A DNA stretch of 6,175 nucleotides from IMG/VR virus record IMGVR_UViG_2713896774_000002, one strand, 5' to 3'. The stretch's first letter is position 1. Every line of letters begins with the position of its first letter. The translations under genes and the position numbers were made by a program. The notes under the pieces were generated by a model. That model did not search any database. It saw only the letters and a list, made by a program, of their open reading frames with translations, and was not told where the DNA came from. Positions 1 through 6,175 of the stretch are shown one piece after another. Source of the stretch: a virus. Taxonomy: Duplodnaviria > Heunggongvirae > Uroviricota > Caudoviricetes.

Positions 1-903
1 CAGACCGTCAATAAGAAACTGGAAGACCAGAGTGCGGCAATTCAGCAGATACAGAAGGTTCAGGTTGATACAAATAATAACCTGAACAGCATGTGGGCTG
101 TGAAGCTGCAGCAGATGCAGGACGGACGCCTTTATATCGCGGGTATTGGTGCCGGTATTGAGAACACCCCTGACGGCATGCAGAGTCAGGTGCTGCTGGC
201 GGCGGACAGGATTGCGATGGTTAATCCTGCGAATGGCAACACAAAACCGATGTTTGTTGGTCAGGGCGATCAGATATTCATGAACGACGTGTTCCTGAAA
301 CGCCTGACGGCCCCCACCATTACCAGCGGTGGAAATCCACCGGCATTTTCCCTGACACCGGACGGAAAGCTGACTGCTAAAAATGCGGATATCAGTGGCA
401 GTGTGAATGCGAACTCCGGGACGCTCAACAACGTCACGATTAATGAGAACTGTCAGATTAAGGGGAAACTGTCAGCCAATCAGATTGAAGGCGATATTGT
501 CAAAACAGTGGGTAAGGCTTTCCCGCGGGACTCCCGGGCACCGGAGCGGTGGCCATCAGGGACCATTACCGTCAGGATTTATGACGATCAGCCTTTTGAC
601 AGGCAAATTGTTATTCCAGCGGTGGCATTCTGCGGCGCTAAACATGAGCGGGAGAATAACGATATTTATTCGTCATGCCGCCTGATAGTGAAGAAAAATG
701 GTGCTGAAATTTATAACCGTACCGCGCTGGATAATACGCTGATTTACAGTGGTGTTATTGATATGCCAGCTGGTCACGGCCACATGACGCTGGAGTTTTC
801 GGTGTCAGCATGGCTGGTAAATGACTGGTATCCCACAGCAAGTATCAGCGATTTGCTGGTTGTGGTGATGAAGAAAGCCACCGCAGGCATCAGTATCAGC
901 TGA
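1..903 (+). CDS. J: Tail-tip host-specificity protein J, C-terminal portion (5' partial; reading frame is open from base 1, stop TGA at 901-903)
   Basis: Frame 1 is open from position 1 through 903, so the ORF-track start at 91 is an internal Met. The translation (…[103 protein letters not shown]…) matches my recollection of the C-terminal part of lambda gpJ. It sits directly upstream of lom and stf, as in lambda. Confidence 0.85.
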
Positions 904-922
904 ATTTTATAACCCATATACG

Positions 923-946
923 GGCGCCAGAAATGGCGCCTTTTTT
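923..946 (+). terminator. Rho-independent terminator downstream of J
   Basis: Perfect 7-bp GC-rich stem GGCGCCA (923-929) pairing with TGGCGCC (934-940), closed by a GAAA tetraloop, followed immediately by TTTTTT (941-946). Located 20 nt after the J stop codon. Confidence 0.6.
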
Positions 947-960
947 ATTGCAGAAAAGCG

Positions 961-965
961 AGAGG
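961..965 (+). promoter_or_regulatory. Shine-Dalgarno sequence for lom (AGAGG, 5-nt spacer to ATG 971)
   Basis: Purine-rich AGAGG lies 5 nt upstream of the lom ATG. Confidence 0.5.
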
Positions 966-970
966 TAATT

Positions 971-1042
971 ATGCGTAAAGTTTGTGCAGCCATTTTGTCC
1001 GCAGCCATCTGTCTGGCCGTATCCGGTGCGCCTGCATGGGCG
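971..1042 (+). other. Sec signal peptide of Lom (24 aa, predicted cleavage after AWA)
   Basis: Positively charged N-terminus (MRK), hydrophobic core ([14 protein letters not shown]) and an A-W-A signal peptidase I site, all read directly from the translation. Confidence 0.6.
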
Positions 1043-1570
1043 TCTGAGCAGCAGGCCACACTGAGCGCAGGGTATCTTCATGCCCGTACGAACGCTCCCG
1101 GCAGCGATGATCTGAACGGGATTAACGTGAAATACCGTTATGAGTTTACGGACACGCTGGGGCTGATTACGTCATTCAGTTATGCCAACGCTGAAGATGA
1201 GCAAAAAACGCATTACAGCGATACCCGCTGGCATGAAGATTCCGTGCGTAACCGCTGGTTCAGCGTGATGGCGGGGCCGTCTGTGCGCGTGAATGAATGG
1301 TTCAGCGCGTATGCGATGGCGGGTATGGCTTACAGCCGTGTTTCGACTTTCTCCGGAGATTATATCCGCGTAACTGACAACAAGGGGAAAACGCACGATG
1401 TGCTGACCGGAAGTGATGACGGTCGCCACAGCAACACGTCTCTGGCGTGGGGAGCTGGCGTGCAGTTTAACCCGACCGAATCCGTGGCCGTTGACGTCGC
1501 TTATGAAGGCTCCGGCAGCGGTGACTGGCGTACCAACAGTTTCATCGTGGGTGTCGGTTATAAATTCTGA
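971..1570 (+). CDS. lom: Lom outer-membrane protein (Ail/Lom/OmpX/PagC family 8-stranded beta-barrel), 199 aa
   Basis: 199-aa ORF with an N-terminal signal peptide ([24 protein letters not shown]|SEQ, AxA cleavage motif) and a C-terminal aromatic residue (…VGVGYKF) typical of OM beta-barrels. Sequence and position between J and stf match lambda lom as I recall it. Alternating hydrophobic/aromatic beta-strand patterns run through the protein. Confidence 0.9.
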
Positions 1571-1596
1571 TTAGCCAGGTAACACAGTGTTATGAC

Positions 1597-1623
1597 AGCC
1601 CGCCGGTTCAGGCGGGCTTTTTT
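1597..1623 (+). terminator. Rho-independent terminator downstream of lom
   Basis: 8-bp perfect stem AGCCCGCC (1597-1604) / GGCGGGCT (1611-1618), 6-nt loop GGTTCA, followed by a T-run (1618-1623). Located 27 nt after the lom stop. Confidence 0.7.
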
Positions 1624-1634
1624 GTGGGGTGAAT

Positions 1635-4600
1635 ATGGCAGTAAAGATTTCAGGTGTACTGAAAGACGGCACAGGAAAACCGGTACAGAACTGCACAATC
1701 CAGCTGAAAGCAAAACGTAACAGCACCACGGTGGTGGTGAACACGCTGGCCTCAGAAAATCCGGATGAAGCCGGGCGTTACAGTATGGACGTTGAGTACG
1801 GTCAGTACAGCGTTATTCTGTTGGTGGAAGGATTCCCGCCGTCACATGCCGGGACCATCACCGTGTATGAAGATTCCCGACCCGGTACGCTGAATGATTT
1901 TCTCGGTGCCATGACGGAGGATGATGCCCGTCCGGAGGCACTGCGCCGTTTTGAGCTGATGGTGGAAGAGGTGGCGCGTAACGCGTCCGCGGTGGCACAG
2001 AACACGGCAGCCGCGAAGAAGTCAGCCGGCGATGCCGGCACATCAGCCCGTGAGGCGGCAACCCATGCGACTGATGCTGCAGGCTCAGCACGTGCAGCCA
2101 GCACATCAGCCGGGCAGGCCGCGACGTCGGCTCAGTCAGCGTCTTCCAGCGCAGGAACGGCATCAACAAAGGCTACTGAAGCATCAAAAAGTGCTGCCGC
2201 TGCAGAGTCCTCAAAAAGCGCGGCAGCTACCAGTGCCGGTGCGGCGAAAACGTCAGAAACGAATGCGGCAGCGTCACAAAAATCTGCAGCCACTTCTGCA
2301 TCCGCAGCGACCACAAAGGCGTCAGAAGCTGCCACCTCAGCCCGGGATGCGGCGGCCTCAAAAGAGGCAGCGAAATCATCAGAAACGAACGCATCATCAA
2401 GCGCCAGTAGTGCCGCTTCCTCGGCAACGGCGGCAGGAAATTCCGCGAAGGCGGCAAAGACGTCCGAGACGAACGCCAGGTCTTCTGAAACGGCAGCGGG
2501 ACAGAGTGCCTCAGCTGCGGCAGGCTCAAAAACAGCGGCAGCATCATCTGCCAGTGCCGCGTCAACAAGTGCCGGGCAGGCCTCAGCCAGTGCCACCGCT
2601 GCCGGAAAGTCGGCAGAAAGTGCCGCCTCGTCTGCTTCAACAGCCACAACGAAGGCTGGCGAAGCCACTGAACAGGCCAGTGCAGCAGCGAGGTCTGCTT
2701 CCGCAGCGAAGACATCCGAGACGAACGCGAAAGCGTCGGAAACCAGCGCAGAATCCTCAAAAACGGCTGCCGCATCGTCCGCCAGTTCGGCGGCGTCATC
2801 GGCATCATCGGCGTCAGCTTCAAAAGATGAGGCGACCAGACAGGCGTCAGCAGCGAAGGGCAGCGCCACGACAGCATCCACGAAGGCGACAGAGGCAGCT
2901 GGCAGTGCGACGGCGGCAGCACAGAGCAAAAGTACGGCGGAATCCGCGGCAACGCGCGCCGAGACAGCAGCTAAACGGGCAGAGGATATTGCATCCGCCG
3001 TGGCGCTTGAGGATGCAAGTACGACGAAAAAGGGGATAGTACAGCTCAGCAGTGCGACCAACAGTACGTCTGAAACGCTGGCGGCAACGCCAAAGGCAGT
3101 AAAATCAGCCTATGACAATGCAGAGAAACGTCTGCAGAAAGACCAGAACGGCGCTGATATACCCGATAAGGGACGCTTCCTGAACAACATTAACGCGGTC
3201 AGTAAAACAGACTTTGCTGATAAGCGTGGTATGCGTTATGTGCGGGTTAACGCTCCTGCAGGTGCAACATCTGGAAAATATTACCCTGTTGTTGTTATGC
3301 GTTCTGCTGGCTCAGTAAGCGAACTGGCATCAAGGGTCATTATCACCACGGCACCGCGAACCGCAGGCGATCCGATGAATAACTGCGAGTTTAACGGATT
3401 TGTTATGCCTGGTGGCTGGACTGACAGGGGGCGTTATGCTTATGGAATGTTCTGGCAATATCAAAACAATGAACGAGCCATCCACTCAATAATGATGAGT
3501 AATAAGGGCGATGATTTGCGCTCTGTGTTCTATGTTGATGGCGCTGCTTTCCCTGTTTTTGCGTTTATCGAAGATGGCCTGTCAATATCCGCACCTGGTG
3601 CTGATCTCGTTGTTAATGATACGACCTATAAGTTTGGGGCAACAAATCCAGCGACTGAATGTATCGCGGCGGACGTTATCCTTGATTTTAAGAGTGGGCG
3701 TGGTTTTTATGAGTCTCATTCGTTAATCGTTAACGATAACTTGTCGTGCAAAAAACTTTTTGCCACAGACGAAATTGTAGCGCGTGGTGGTAATCAGATT
3801 CGAATGATAGGTGGGGAGTATGGTGCATTATGGCGTAATGATGGCGCTAAAACTTACCTGCTGCTTACCAATCAAGGTGATGTTTATGGTGGCTGGAATA
3901 CATTAAGACCGTTTGCTATTGATAACGCAACCGGCGAACTGGTTATTGGAACCAAACTGTCCGCAAGTCTGAACGGTAATGCATTAACAGCAACAAAGCT
4001 GCAAACGCCAAGACTGGTTTCTGGTGTTGAGTTTGATGGTTCCAAAGATATTACTTTAACCGCCGCGCATGTGGCTGCTTTTGCCAGAAGGGCAACGGAT
4101 ACATATGCCGATGCGGATGGTGGCGTTCCCTGGAATGCCGAATCAGGCGCTTACAATGTCACCCGCTCTGGCAACAGCTATATTCTGGTTAACTTCTATA
4201 CCGGAGTCGGAAGTTGCCGGACATTGCAGATGAAGGCGCATTACAGAAATGGAGGTCTGTTCTACCGTTCCTCAAGAGATGGCTATGGTTTTGAGGAAGA
4301 CTGGGCAGAAGTTTATACCTCGAAAAATCTTCCACCAGAAAGCTACCCAGTCGGTGCACCAATCCCGTGGCCATCAGATACCGTTCCGTCTGGTTATGCC
4401 CTGATGCAGGGGCAGACTTTTGACAAATCTGCTTACCCGAAACTTGCAGCCGCTTATCCGTCAGGCGTGATCCCTGATATGCGTGGCTGGACGATTAAGG
4501 GCAAGCCCGCCAGTGATCGAGCCGTATTGTCTCAGGAACAGGACGGCATTAAATCACACACCCACAGCGCCAGCGTATCCAGTACGGATTTGGGGACGAA

Positions 4601-4985
4601 AACCACATCGTCGTTTGATTACGGCACTAAATCCACGAATAACACTGGTGCGCATACCCATAGTGTTAGCGGTACGGCTGCTTCAGCCGGTGCACATACC
4701 CATTCGATGACATTTGTTTCAGGTGGTTCCAGTGGTGCTCCGGGAAGTGGATCACCTGATTATTCTAAATACAGTGTTAACACTTCTTCTGCAGGCGCTC
4801 ATACGCACTCTGTATCGGGTACTGCTGCAAGCGCAGGTGCACACGCACATACTGTCGGTATTGGTGCTCATACGCACTCCGTTGCGATTGGTTCACATGG
4901 ACATACCATCACCGTTAACGCTGCTGGTAACGCGGAAAACACCGTCAAAAACATCGCATTTAACTATATTGTGAGGCTTGCATAA
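1635..4985 (+). CDS. stf: Side tail fibre protein Stf (about 1116 aa from ATG 1635; ORF track begins at in-frame GTG 1629)
   Basis: The N-terminus [26 protein letters not shown]… matches my recollection of the lambda/Rac Stf N-terminus. A long Ala/Ser/Thr-rich shaft follows, then a conserved phage tail-fibre repeat ([36 protein letters not shown]), then a C-terminal region with His-x-His repeats. The gene is followed by an overlapping tfa, the canonical stf-tfa pair. The ATG at 1635 is preferred over GTG 1629 because of the conserved MAVK N-terminus and a GGGG/GGTG SD-like tract at 1626-1632. Confidence 0.9.
2244..2728 (+). repeat. Four dispersed copies of a 24-bp direct repeat encoding AK(T/S)SETNA within the Ala/Ser-rich shaft of stf (copies at 2244-2267, 2370-2393, 2454-2477, 2705-2728)
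   Basis: Near-identical DNA units read directly: GCGAAAACGTCAGAAACGAATGCG, GCGAAATCATCAGAAACGAACGCA, GCAAAGACGTCCGAGACGAACGCC and GCGAAGACATCCGAGACGAACGCG, each encoding A-K-T/S-S-E-T-N-A. They are embedded in a low-complexity A/S/T-rich segment spanning roughly 1975-3000. Confidence 0.7.
3027..3131 (+). other. Conserved phage tail-fibre repeat / collar-like motif within Stf
   Basis: The peptide [36 protein letters not shown] resembles the short repeat motif recurrent in many phage tail fibres (recalled, not searched). Confidence 0.5.
4557..4904 (+). other. Cluster of seven His-x-His motifs in the Stf C-terminal tip (putative metal-binding needle-like domain)
   Basis: Translation shows SHTHS, GAHTHS, GAHTHS, GAHTHS, GAHAHT, GAHTHS and SHGHT between nt 4557 and 4904, mostly in the unit (S/T)AGAHTHS and interspersed with Gly/Ser-rich linkers. 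Confidence 0.6.
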
Positions 4986-5560
4986 TGGCATTCAGAATGA
5001 GTGAACAACCACGGACCATAAAAATTTATAATCTGCTGGCCGGAACTAATGAATTTATTGGTGAAGGTGACGCATATATTCCGCCTCATACAGGTCTGCC
5101 AGCAAACAGTACCGATATTGCACCGCCAGATATTCCGGCTGGCTTTGTGGCTGTTTTCAACAGTGATGAGGCATCGTGGCATCTCGTTGAAGATCATCGG
5201 GGAAAAACCGTCTATGACGTGGCTTCCGGCGACGCGTTATTTATTTCTGAACTTGGCTCGTTACCGGAAAATGTCACCTGGTTATCGCCGGAAGGGGAAT
5301 ATCAGAAGTGGAACGGCACAGCCTGGGTGAAGGATACGGAAGCAGAAAAACTGTTCCGGATCCGGGAGGCGGAAGAAACAAAAAACAACCTGATGCAGGT
5401 AGCCAGTGAGCATATTGCGCCGCTTCAGGATGCTGCAGATCTGGAAATCGCAACGGAGGAAGAAATCTCGTTGCTGGAAGCATGGAAAAAGTATCGGGTA
5501 TTGCTGAACCGTGTTGATACGTCAACTGCACAGGATATTGAATGGCCAGCACTGCCGTAG
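4985..5560 (+). CDS. tfa: Tail fibre assembly protein Tfa (191 aa)
   Basis: ATG 4985 overlaps the stf stop (TAATG) and is preceded by TGAGG (4972-4976). The C-terminal region (…[29 protein letters not shown]) matches the conserved C-terminus of lambda-type Tfa chaperones as I recall it. Its position immediately after stf fits. Confidence 0.9.
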
Positions 5561-5657
5561 GGTAAAACATATAAATTCTATAATTAGATGTATCTTTCCA
5601 TTTACGGCAAGGAAGGGGGCTTGGAAGACGTAAAGCATCTCACACCGAGATTATTTT

Positions 5658-6175
5658 TTATATGTCAGGTGTCTGAAGTTTTGCTTTGGCTCTTAAAATG
5701 GTTTGCCGCGAGGTTTTGAATTCCCGGGCAATGGCACTTATACTTACACCTGACTTAATTCGTTCGAATACCGCCTGTTTCTGTTCTTCATTTAACACAG
5801 GTGGTCGACCAAAACGTTTCCCTGCGCCGCGGGCTCTTACTATCCCGGAATGAGTGCGTTCAAGTAAAAGGTCTCGTTCAAATTCAGCGACTGCTGAAAT
5901 TACTTGCATCATCATTTTTCCTGTTGGACTGGTCAGGTCAATGCCCCCCAATGCTAAGCAATGCACTCTGATACCTGTTTCGGTCAGTTGTTCCACTGTT
6001 TTCCTGATATCCATTGCATTACAACCAAGGCGATCCAGTTTTGTCACAATCAATTGATCACCACATTTCAGGCGAGCAAGCAACCGGTTAAAACCAGGAC
6101 GCTCACTGGTTGCTGGGTAATGACTCCAACTTATTGATAGTGTTTTATGTTCAGATAATGCCCGATGACTTTGTC
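5658..6175 (-). CDS. pin: Serine recombinase, DNA-invertase (Pin/Hin/Gin-like), C-terminal about 170 aa; N-terminus lies beyond the window end
   Basis: The minus-strand frame is open from 6175 down to the stop at 5658-5660; the ORF-track 'M' at 6083 is a TTG and not the real start. The translation contains resolvase/invertase hallmarks: …[33 protein letters not shown]…[23 protein letters not shown]…GRPP… plus a C-terminal helix-turn-helix ([21 protein letters not shown]). Convergent with tfa, as in Rac-type prophages (stf-tfa-pin). Confidence 0.85.

Follow-up and report, generated by a model that had tools for sequence, protein, structure and literature searches.

The locus and its closest described relatives

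Phages lambda, T4, P1, P2 and Mu have been known to exchange parts of their tail fibres horizontally since 1989–1994, according to the work cited in PMC3945230 (its references 71–74), and lambda has been shown experimentally to recombine with the stf-tfa regions of the Rac and Qin prophages via Red-beta or RecA (PMC3945230). The mosaicism of the stf gene described here is already known biology and conceptually nothing new; its value is that of a clean worked example of phages trading host-range parts. Among the closest known systems is the Stf of Ur-lambda, which corresponds to orf401 plus orf314 in lambda PaPa. Residues 1–91 of this protein assemble into a dodecameric collar where gpV meets gpM, residues 102–393 of lambda Stf are described as a coiled coil, and four Stf trimers per virion together with faster adsorption are known for Ur-lambda only (PMC12617516). 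In the tip of T4 gp37, residues 929–953 contact receptors, as established by mutagenesis, and seven iron atoms sit in the needle (PMC6957217).

The window, that is, the whole stretch of 6,175 nt that was analysed, is the J-lom-stf-tfa-pin tail end of a prophage, with the following features:

91–903: J, C-terminus
971–1570: lom
1597–1628, plus strand: intrinsic-terminator-like hairpin with T-run between lom and stf, predicted from sequence
1635–4985, plus strand: stf, side tail fibre gene, 1116 aa, intact (ORF call)
1635–2036, plus strand: N-terminal virion-attachment domain, collar domain (aa 1–94) followed by a linker (PF08400, PDB 9e7m)
1947–3044, plus strand: Ala/Ser/Thr-rich shaft, aa 105–470, 52 uninterrupted heptads x-A-x-[TS]-S-A-[TS] (periodicity, register counts)
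2955–3197, plus strand: conserved Mu S-like junction, aa 441–521, ending at the first breakpoint, ~nt 3142–3172 (PDB 5yvq)
3165–4065, plus strand: replaceable module B, aa ~511–811, GC3 0.38 (identity profiles, Pfam, PDB)
4068–4355, plus strand: Mu S-like domain, aa 812–907 (PDB 8ju3, residues 321–415)
4338–4982, plus strand: gp37-type receptor-binding needle (PDB 2xgf; Pfam Collar and Phage_fiber)
4645–4845, plus strand: hypervariable tip cassette, aa ~1004–1070, GC3 0.28 (identity profiles)
4647–4661, 4689–4703, 4794–4813 and 4863–4882: His-box repeats D7 and D8
4985–5560, plus strand: tfa, tail fibre assembly chaperone (Pfam PF02413 Caudo_TAP, E = 3e-43; phrog_105, E = 1e-98)
5658–6115, minus strand: pin-type serine invertase gene, truncated (Pfam Resolvase)
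6116–6175, no strand assigned: end of an IS1 element inserted into pin (IS1A annotation)

The stf gene begins with the ATG at 1635, preceded by a Shine-Dalgarno-like GGGGTGA run, and ends with a TAA stop at 4983–4985, exactly the extent given in an earlier note on this DNA. The final A of the stop doubles as the A of the tfa ATG (junction TAATG, a 1-nt overlap). Upstream, the hairpin between lom and stf, AGCCCGCC-GGTTCA-GGCGGGCT followed by TTTTTT, has 8 pairs, 7 of the 8 being G-C. The placement of stf after J and lom, with tfa directly 3′, is of the Stf type, and the N-terminal domain, the gene position and the predicted proximal coiled-coil shaft are those of a lambda-type Stf (PF08400 family). 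The gene is an unremarkable example of the Rac/Qin-type side tail fibre genes carried by E. coli prophages; its DNA is 99.3% identical to the gene of a prophage at the Qin site, and its protein shares 95.9% identity with StfR of E. coli K-12.

K-12 Rac StfR (b1372) and the Qin-site stf of USDA-ARS-USMARC-50748 have the same lom-stf-tfa-pin order and the same block architecture as the window. The Qin-site prophage is 99.4% identical in DNA over window nt 1–6115, whereas StfR, 1120 aa long, carries a different tip cassette (62–69% nt identity over nt 4635–4834); unlike both, the window has a pin interrupted by IS1. Ur-lambda Stf shares with the window a 92% identical collar domain, the heptad coiled-coil type, the junction motif, the Tfa partner and a gp37-type collar and needle (67% identity over aa 903–1116). 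However, lambda Stf lacks module B and the Mu S-like block, window aa ~405–902 having no counterpart, its shaft is 15 heptads shorter, and its tip allele is longer, different and common to phage 9g. The T4 gp37 tip has all seven HxH motifs and an identical C-terminal 15-residue stretch, but its tip loop is only 32% identical to that of the window, and the rest of gp37 and its gp36 attachment are unrelated to the lambda-type anchor. Finally, the fibre of Nonagvirus 9g, a member of the Queuovirinae outside the lambdoid genera, is collinear with the window over its full length, including module B (50–88% identity in alignment windows) and the needle, but its anchor is only 25–40% identical and its tip allele is lambda-like.

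The anchor and the shaft

The first ~110 residues had been recognised as the conserved lambdoid Stf N-terminus, and three comparisons bear this out. Residues 1–134 match Pfam PF08400 phage_tail_N over its full length (profile 1–134, E = 9e-72), residues 1–94 match the solved collar domain of lambda Stf (PDB 9e7m, E = 2e-51, 7 mismatches in 94), and lambda and window Stf are 92% identical across aa 1–113. By homology with lambda Stf, the collar domain (aa 1–94) would clamp the fibre trimer onto the tail tube just above the tip. The N-terminal 134 aa found matches in 318 phage records; among the matches listed are lambdoid, Stx-converting and Gifsy phages, and those below 60% identity come from Queuovirinae and Serratia siphophages. 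Judged from sequence, the anchor is present in lambdoid and other siphophages.

The shaft that follows is repetitive and rich in Ala, Ser and Thr (A+S+T fraction 0.73, GC 0.613 over nt 2037–3044), and the recurring AKTSETNA units noticed before are found in it as four copies of K[TS]SETNA, at aa 205, 247, 275 and 359. The description of this region as low-complexity can be refined into 52 uninterrupted heptads. Self-identity is 0.36–0.41 at lags that are multiples of 7, versus 0.14–0.24 at the remaining lags; Fourier analysis gives z-scores of up to 40 relative to 1000 shuffled sequences, far above chance; and in the heptad register Ala occupies two core positions in 47 of 53 and 35 of 53 cases. 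Tandem Repeats Finder called no array in the shaft except a 9-nt × 2.9 run at nt 2791–2816, because the heptads are too degenerate in DNA; the periodicity became visible only in the protein and, in DNA, through repeat spacings in multiples of 21 nt. In a single-sequence AF2 model of aa 91–520 the shaft is a continuous helix (pLDDT 70–87), this model being a monomer folded back on itself, with a pTM of 0.26, that was not used for fold search. Periodicity, predicted helix and the coiled coil described for lambda suggest a trimeric coiled coil, which with an Ala core would be ~54 nm long (computed at 0.148 nm per residue). The shaft exceeds those of lambda and Fels-1 by exactly 105 aa, or 15 heptads, and the lambda register is equal modulo 7.

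The earlier note had also set the shaft apart within a mosaic Stf and counted its GC richness in the compositional pattern, and both points need correction. Anchor, shaft and junction are collinear to ~aa 505 in the relatives compared, in which the shaft moves with the N-terminal anchor and is not exchanged as a module of its own; the three parts are very probably inherited jointly within lambdoid siphophages. As for composition, the high GC of the shaft is due to its Ala, Ser and Thr codons (GC2 0.80), GC3 being an unremarkable 0.50, so that it is an amino-acid effect and no sign of foreign origin.

Breakpoints and distal blocks

Could the whole gene, then, have evolved vertically within lambdoid prophages, without horizontal exchange and with a base composition that only reflects the amino-acid content of its domains? 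The shaft, whose GC excess lies wholly at GC2, is in favour of this explanation. Total GC indeed drops from ~0.61 to 0.42–0.49 from about nt 3150, as had been seen by eye, but at synonymous sites the AT-richer DNA is confined to nt 3195–4034 (GC3 0.38) and nt 4635–4835 (0.28), and nt 4335–4634 has a GC3 of 0.54, as elsewhere in stf. This heterogeneity among eight stf segments, significant for GC3 (chi-square p = 9e-6) and for four-fold sites (p = 7e-5), argues against vertical descent, and the two low-GC3 segments are the two most replaceable blocks of stf. Dips in GC3 can flag exchangeable receptor-binding cassettes, only once the amino-acid effect has been removed.

Identity profiles against seven relatives share breakpoints at ~nt 3142–3172, 4065, 4357, 4645 and 4845, where identity falls within a few tens of nt from 96–100% to ~60% or to no homology, and then recovers. 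Lambdoid relatives that are 93–100% identical in DNA over nt 1635–3140 carry diverged or unrelated distal sequence. The junction matches residues 91–172 of the Mu tail fibre S (PDB 5yvq), and just 3′ of it the identity to Turner, PhiR29_2, mEp460 and PhiR30_1 collapses. Module B is ~61% identical in nt to Turner and PhiR30_1 and ~100% identical to 2H10, E6 and K-12 Rac, while PhiR29_2 and mEp460 are non-homologous to the window up to nt 4357. The Mu S-like block is kept in Turner-type relatives and replaced in PhiR29_2-type ones, and the P1-like phage Ro157c2 shares nt 4200–4631 at 96%.

Within module B, aa 663–762 (nt 3621–3920) are a trimerisation domain like that of T4 gp34 (PF21446, E = 3e-27), and aa 706–777 match PDB 4uxe/5nxf. 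A PDB sequence search with aa 501–722 gave only a marginal 20-residue match to a Mu S repeat (E = 0.025). Residues 511–907 would be shaft domains with beta structure, of the kinds seen in T4 gp34 and Mu S. The 1104 phage records matched by aa 511–811 include only 9 at 95% identity or more, the others being mostly T-even gp34/36/37, rV5-like phages and P1. Separate protein searches with the parts of Stf, a check suggested in the earlier note, gave the outcome expected of a mosaic: among the matches listed, lambdoid phages and other siphophages for the N-terminus and mainly T-even, P1-like and P2-like myophages for the distal parts, which have closer relatives among myophages than the anchor has.

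On the basis of domain matches, step-like identity profiles and block-specific lineages, which uphold the idea of a mosaic Stf, the protein is very probably a series of functionally distinct blocks, the distal ones of which have been exchanged across phage families. The exchange proposed for the distal part stands; its treatment as a single module does not, at least three blocks having been exchanged independently. A purely vertical history is already largely refuted for the distal half, and we consider it very unlikely for the gene.

Vertical descent also draws on full-length collinear homologues, which do exist, side by side with a composition that is not uniform: they include 2H10 (96% aa identity) and K-12 StfR and occur in 1229 of 5426 E. 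coli genomes, whereas other lambdoid relatives break collinearity. Their abundance, at 96–99% identity, indicates that this combination of blocks is old and widespread in E. coli. The nearest full-length genome differs by scattered substitutions only, and E6 by the tip cassette alone. The combination does not come from a recent event in the window, and nothing shows exchange in the window's recent ancestry. Within E. coli, 4936 genomes carry nt 1635–3194, at 16,229 places in all, whereas 1377 genomes carry nt 3195–4034 (1679 places) and 646 the tip cassette (771 places). For nt 3195–4034, 92% of the E. coli records are at 99% identity or more; this near-clonality of module B was dropped as evidence of mosaicism, many copies being N-terminally truncated, vertically inherited Qin remnants.

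The distal blocks of Stf have probably been swapped by homologous recombination inside short conserved stretches; these would be the junction motif, the DNA at nt ~4065 or 4357 and, on either side of the tip cassette, the His-box repeats. The same positions offer natural splice points for host-range engineering, usable in lambda-based or T4-based delivery vehicles.

Another possible source of variation is the adjacent Pin invertase, which would act on a 3′ end of stf lying in a shufflon-like invertible segment of the Mu G, P1 C and e14 P kind. A gene for a pin-type serine recombinase is indeed encoded 97 nt beyond tfa, on the minus strand, and stf-associated invertases have been credited with ancient exchanges (PMC3945230). 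However, IS1 cuts pin at nt 6115/6116: the gene has lost its first ~46 codons, and with them the region of the catalytic Ser, its Resolvase match starts at profile position 55, and its alignment to PinQ and PinR ends at nt 6115. The 63-nt query covering the IS1 end matches E. coli genomes at 71,080 places, which carry the annotation IS1A. Moreover, no gix-like site was detected at up to 3 mismatches, the crossover core AAACCNNGGTTT shows no enrichment, with a single match at nt 244, and no long inverted repeats run from stf to the tfa-pin spacer, where the best arms were of 14–23 nt with 73–94% complementarity, short and at chance level. There is one tfa only and no second, inverted stf-C/tfa set. 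The window thus contains neither an intact invertase nor inverted crossover sites bracketing alternative C-termini or chaperones, and an invertase-driven switch seems exceedingly improbable.

The needle and its tip cassette

A globular-looking stretch followed by an HxH tip had been proposed for the end of Stf, and this is what we found: a Pfam Collar domain (PF07484) at aa 907–954 (E = 7e-12) and seven HxH motifs within aa 975–1090. Residues 902–1116 align end to end with the T4 gp37 tip (PDB 2xgf, E = 1e-86), and matches of aa 908–1116 come from T-even gp37, P2-like and Felix-O1-like phages. Collar, HxH repeats, conserved C-terminus and a dedicated downstream chaperone (PF02413) are all features of gp37-type needles. 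The chain would run to the tip and back, with its seven HxH motifs binding seven metal ions on the trimer axis, a coordination suggested by the conservation of all His pairs, and the downstream Tfa would fold the needle. Residues 1021–1045 align with the T4 gp37 receptor-contact residues 929–953, so by analogy the receptor-contacting loop would be aa ~1021–1045. Ur-lambda Stf uses OmpC (PMC12617516). By analogy with Ur-lambda and T4, Stf probably makes reversible adsorption faster, and the receptor would be an outer-membrane porin or LPS.

The tip cassette is 58–69% identical in nt to relatives whose flanks are 96–100% identical, and it is flanked by His-box DNA repeats with which its edges coincide. 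Tip and module B might have diverged in place by point mutation under diversifying selection, without replacement of cassettes. Positive selection is expected in a receptor-contact loop, which is where the variable patch lies, and the pairings sampled are formally tree-compatible: among eight sequences typed, module-B types and tip alleles form no cycle, and hence a formal incompatibility of the four-gamete type is not demonstrated. Yet the alleles differ by ~40% in DNA, with indels, next to flanks that differ by 0–4%, the cassette GC3 of 0.28 is unlike that of its flanks, and the same alleles are found in more than one background and also in T4-like phages, all of which makes divergence in place hardly credible.

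Replacement by cassettes fits the discrete tip alleles common to different backgrounds. One allele is shared by 2H10, E6 and PhiR29_2 and another by Turner and K-12 StfR, across different module-B backgrounds. In the phage collection, the window allele is complete only in Mosigvirus AV116/AV118, where its nt identity is 83% and that of the upstream flank 69% (Fisher p = 0.003). The tip cassette may be a mini-module that temperate lambdoid prophages and virulent T4-like phages continue to exchange by recombination at the His-box repeats, a possibility to which we give a little less than even weight. If true, a mobile tip cassette would imply recent gene flow between temperate and virulent phages, which has been reported as not found, with the exception of the 'ancient' stf case (PMC3945230). 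A sister tip allele joins the lambdoid 2H10 and Mosigvirus G2285, which are 100% identical over the last ~150 nt scored and 86–100% identical over the last ~350 nt.

Genomic setting of stf

The window (6175 nt) covers the tail-fibre end of a lambdoid prophage and carries the following features:

nt 91-903: tip protein J, C-terminus
nt 971-1570: lom
nt 1635-4985: stf, side tail fibre gene (1116 aa)
nt 4985-5560: tfa, chaperone gene
nt 5658-6115, minus strand: pin-type invertase gene, cut at nt 6115/6116
nt 6116-6175: IS1 end, inserted in pin and annotated as IS1A in E. coli genomes

The interval 1635-4985, to which the earlier note had drawn attention, coincides exactly with the coding sequence of stf. 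From its ATG at 1635 the protein opens MAVKISGVL…, a start shared with the solved lambda Stf N-terminal domain, and the last base of the TAA stop is also the first of the tfa ATG. At the DNA level stf is 99.3% identical to the copy in E. coli USDA-ARS-USMARC-50748, located at the Qin site and adjoining pinQ, ydfK, ynfT and ydfJ, and the protein shows 95.9% identity with K-12 Rac StfR. Of the 5426 complete E. coli genomes, 1229 carry a copy of stf with coverage of 80% or more. Between lom and stf, nt 1597-1628 form a hairpin resembling a strong terminator (8 pairs, 7 of them G-C, then T6), 7 nt upstream of the stf Shine-Dalgarno-like run; late transcription would need to read past this hairpin, presumably via Q-type antitermination.

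Architecture and composition of the fibre

All the elements that the earlier note had described along stf are present. The lambdoid N-terminus, or anchor, matches the full Pfam phage_tail_N profile over aa 1-134 (E=9e-72) and is 92% identical to lambda over aa 1-113. In the Ur-lambda cryo-EM structure, residues 1-91 of lambda Stf make up the collar domain, which binds at the gpV-gpM junction, and residues 102-393 the proximal coiled coil of the trimer (PMC12617516). The GC-rich, Ala/Ser/Thr-rich shaft is likewise confirmed (nt 2037-3044, GC 0.61, Ala+Ser+Thr 73%, four copies of K[TS]SETNA). This shaft is a coiled coil rather than mere low complexity. Indeed, aa 105-470 contain 52 consecutive heptads without a stutter (consensus x-A-x-[T/S]-S-A-[T/S]), in which Ala occupies 47/53 and 35/53 of two positions 3 and 4 apart, the a/d core positions, and the AKTSETNA units are recurring variants of this heptad. 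Self-identity is 0.36-0.41 at all multiples of 7 and 0.14-0.24 at other lags, Fourier power at periods 7 and 3.5 reaches z values up to 40 against shuffles, and direct repeats in the DNA are spaced in multiples of 21 nt. Single-sequence AlphaFold2 predicts a near-continuous helix over aa 98-505 (pLDDT 70-87), in a monomer model folded back on itself that is informative for secondary structure only. The distance from RFELMVEE to GIVQLS is 362 residues, compared with 257 in lambda and Fels-1, a difference of exactly 15 heptads. The shaft is overlapped by long ORFs of 335, 309 and 241 aa (nt 2032-3061), antisense or in alternative frames, and lambda has the annotated orf206b at the equivalent place. 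Most likely these ORFs are not genes and exist because GCN/TCN/ACN heptad coding yields few stops.

Beyond the shaft, a sequence search of the PDB outlined a patchwork:

aa 441-521: Mu tail fibre S (PDB 5yvq)
aa 706-777: T4 gp34 (PDB 4uxe, 5nxf; Pfam Gp34_trimer at aa 663-762)
aa 812-907: Mu S (PDB 8ju3)
aa 902-1116: T4 gp37 receptor-binding tip (PDB 2xgf, E=1e-86)

For aa ~521-705, sequence comparison gave no relative of solved structure. A 12-residue stretch noticed earlier in the globular-looking region corresponds to the Pfam Collar domain, and the HxH tip comprises seven HxH motifs (aa 975-1090). In the 2xgf alignment every HxH pair and a C-terminal 15-residue stretch are conserved in Stf, and gp37 residues 929-953 (chain index + 784) correspond to Stf aa 1021-1045. 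In T4, these gp37 residues contact OmpC and LPS, according to mutagenesis, and the needle holds seven iron atoms (PMC6957217). In every feature that could be tested, stf conforms to a lambda-type side tail fibre bearing a needle of the T4 gp37 type and accompanied by a Tfa chaperone.

The distal DNA is AT-richer, as had been noted, with GC falling to 0.42-0.49 at nt ~3200-4100. Splitting GC by codon position puts this composition in a different light. The high GC of the shaft is a second-position effect (GC2 = 0.80) due to its Ala, Ser and Thr codons, its GC3 (0.50) being below that of the N-terminal domain (0.61). Genuine depression at synonymous sites is confined to nt 3195-4034 (GC3 0.38) and nt 4635-4835 (GC3 0.28), with GC3 at 0.54 in nt 4335-4634; segments differ significantly (chi-square p=9e-6 for GC3, 7e-5 for four-fold sites). 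Since these low-GC3 blocks are exactly the two most often replaced in relatives, composition and comparison agree.

Evidence for exchange of distal blocks

Identity profiles of the stf region against seven relatives are step-like, with common breakpoints. Up to nt ~3142-3172 all lambdoid relatives are ~90-100% identical. Turner and PhiR30_1 then drop to ~61% until nt 4065 and return to 96%; in PhiR29_2 and mEp460 homology is absent until nt 4357, after which identity is 96-97%. At nt ~4645-4845, the tip cassette, identity is ~60% in all but Qin-type copies, and 3′ of nt ~4845 it is regained (96-100% through tfa). In the case of strain E6, 99.5% identical over nt 1652-4644, the 200-nt tip cassette is essentially the sole difference; over nt 4200-4631 the P1-like phage Ro157c2 is 96% identical, but its tip is a different one. 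Tip alleles are discrete and recur in different backgrounds, one being common to 2H10, E6 and PhiR29_2, another to Turner and K-12 StfR and a third to lambda and 9g. The cassette edges coincide with repeated His-box DNA, GGTGC[G/A/T]CATAC (nt 4647, 4689, 4794, 4863). Swapping of gp37 adhesin domains via His boxes was reportedly described by Tétart and Krisch (1996, 1998).

Separate searches of the parts of Stf, proposed in the earlier note, returned different phage lineages for anchor and distal blocks. The anchor (aa 1-134) matched 318 phage records; those listed are from lambdoid, Stx-converting and Gifsy phages, joined at less than 60% identity by Queuovirinae and by siphophages of Serratia. 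Module B (aa 511-811) matched 1104, just 9 at ≥95%, the remainder mostly T-even gp34/36/37, rV5-like phages and P1; aa 908-1116 matched T-even gp37 (T4 68.7%), P2-like and Felix-O1-like phages. Each protein quarter hit 11-27 different PHROG tail-fibre families. The Stf of Nonagvirus 9g (Queuovirinae) is fully collinear with the window architecture, its anchor being 25-40% and its distal domains 70-90% identical, a comparison suggesting that the whole distal half may have moved between phage groups.

Block exchange by homologous recombination within conserved linkers would be the simplest mechanism. Recombination of lambda with Rac/Qin stf-tfa has been shown experimentally, via Red-beta or RecA, at ~2e-6 (PMC3945230). 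The alternative that stf variation is driven by invertase switching is not supported: no gix-like site or crossover core was found near stf or tfa, an inverted-repeat scan of the window gave no adequate arms, and the window has no additional fibre and chaperone genes in inverted orientation. Moreover, pin is cut by the IS1 end and is therefore without its catalytic N-terminus, and stf-tfa-pin does not qualify as an invertible tail-fibre segment. The missing part of pin amounts to ~46 N-terminal codons, the catalytic serine region among them; PinQ and PinR alignments end exactly at nt 6115, and in E. coli genomes the 60 nt of the IS1 end are found at 71,080 sites.

The case for recombination rests on how sharp the edges are, on how far identity drops and on sharing across families; the pairings of module B with tip alleles, typed in only eight sequences, are still formally tree-compatible. 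The earlier note had held that uniform composition and collinear homologues in one lineage would refute the mosaic reading; collinear copies are indeed common in E. coli, but composition is uneven and other relatives show identity steps. The block combination of the window is old and common, and no exchange could be placed in its own recent history. The segment nt 3195-4034 occurs in 1377 E. coli genomes (92% of records at ≥99%). We do not take this conservation as evidence of mobility, since the near-clonality of the distal blocks in ~1300 genomes is partly due to vertically inherited Qin remnants lacking the stf 5′ half. In many E. coli genomes, exemplified by LD39-1 and K_EC180, a deletion in such remnants has joined 3′ stf, which starts at window nt ~2700 in LD39-1, to a portal or terminase gene that is itself truncated; this remaining part of stf, and tfa after it, match the window at 100%.

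The tip cassette in temperate and virulent phages

That stf is mosaic is thus correct and already known: tail fibre mosaics common to lambda, T4, P1, P2 and Mu are classic (Montag 1989, Haggård-Ljungquist 1992, Sandmeier 1992/1994; refs 71-74 of PMC3945230). Slightly past textbook knowledge is the tip cassette, which at the DNA level appears to connect temperate and virulent phages. The cassette of the window is complete in just two phage records, Mosigvirus AV116 and AV118 (OR352946/OR352948), where it is 83.1% identical in nucleotides versus 69% in the upstream flank (Fisher p=0.003). The tip allele itself is 83% identical to the AV116/AV118 gp37 tip, in protein and DNA alike, versus just 51-56% in other lambdoid Stf proteins.

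In 2H10 the 3′ ~350-400 nt of stf (positions ~5957-6354 of the compared locus) agree with gp37 of Mosigvirus vB_EcoM_G2285 (~3750-4148) at 86-100% nucleotide identity; the last three 50-nt windows to be scored are at 100%, and the 250 nt upstream at 58-74%. These sequences have the look of a temperate-virulent exchange that took place recently and extends to the stop codon. Such sharing would suggest that gene flow is not solely ancient, and bears more on related loci than on the window, whose tip allele is carried by 646 E. coli genomes versus 3913 for the surrounding nt 4035-4985.
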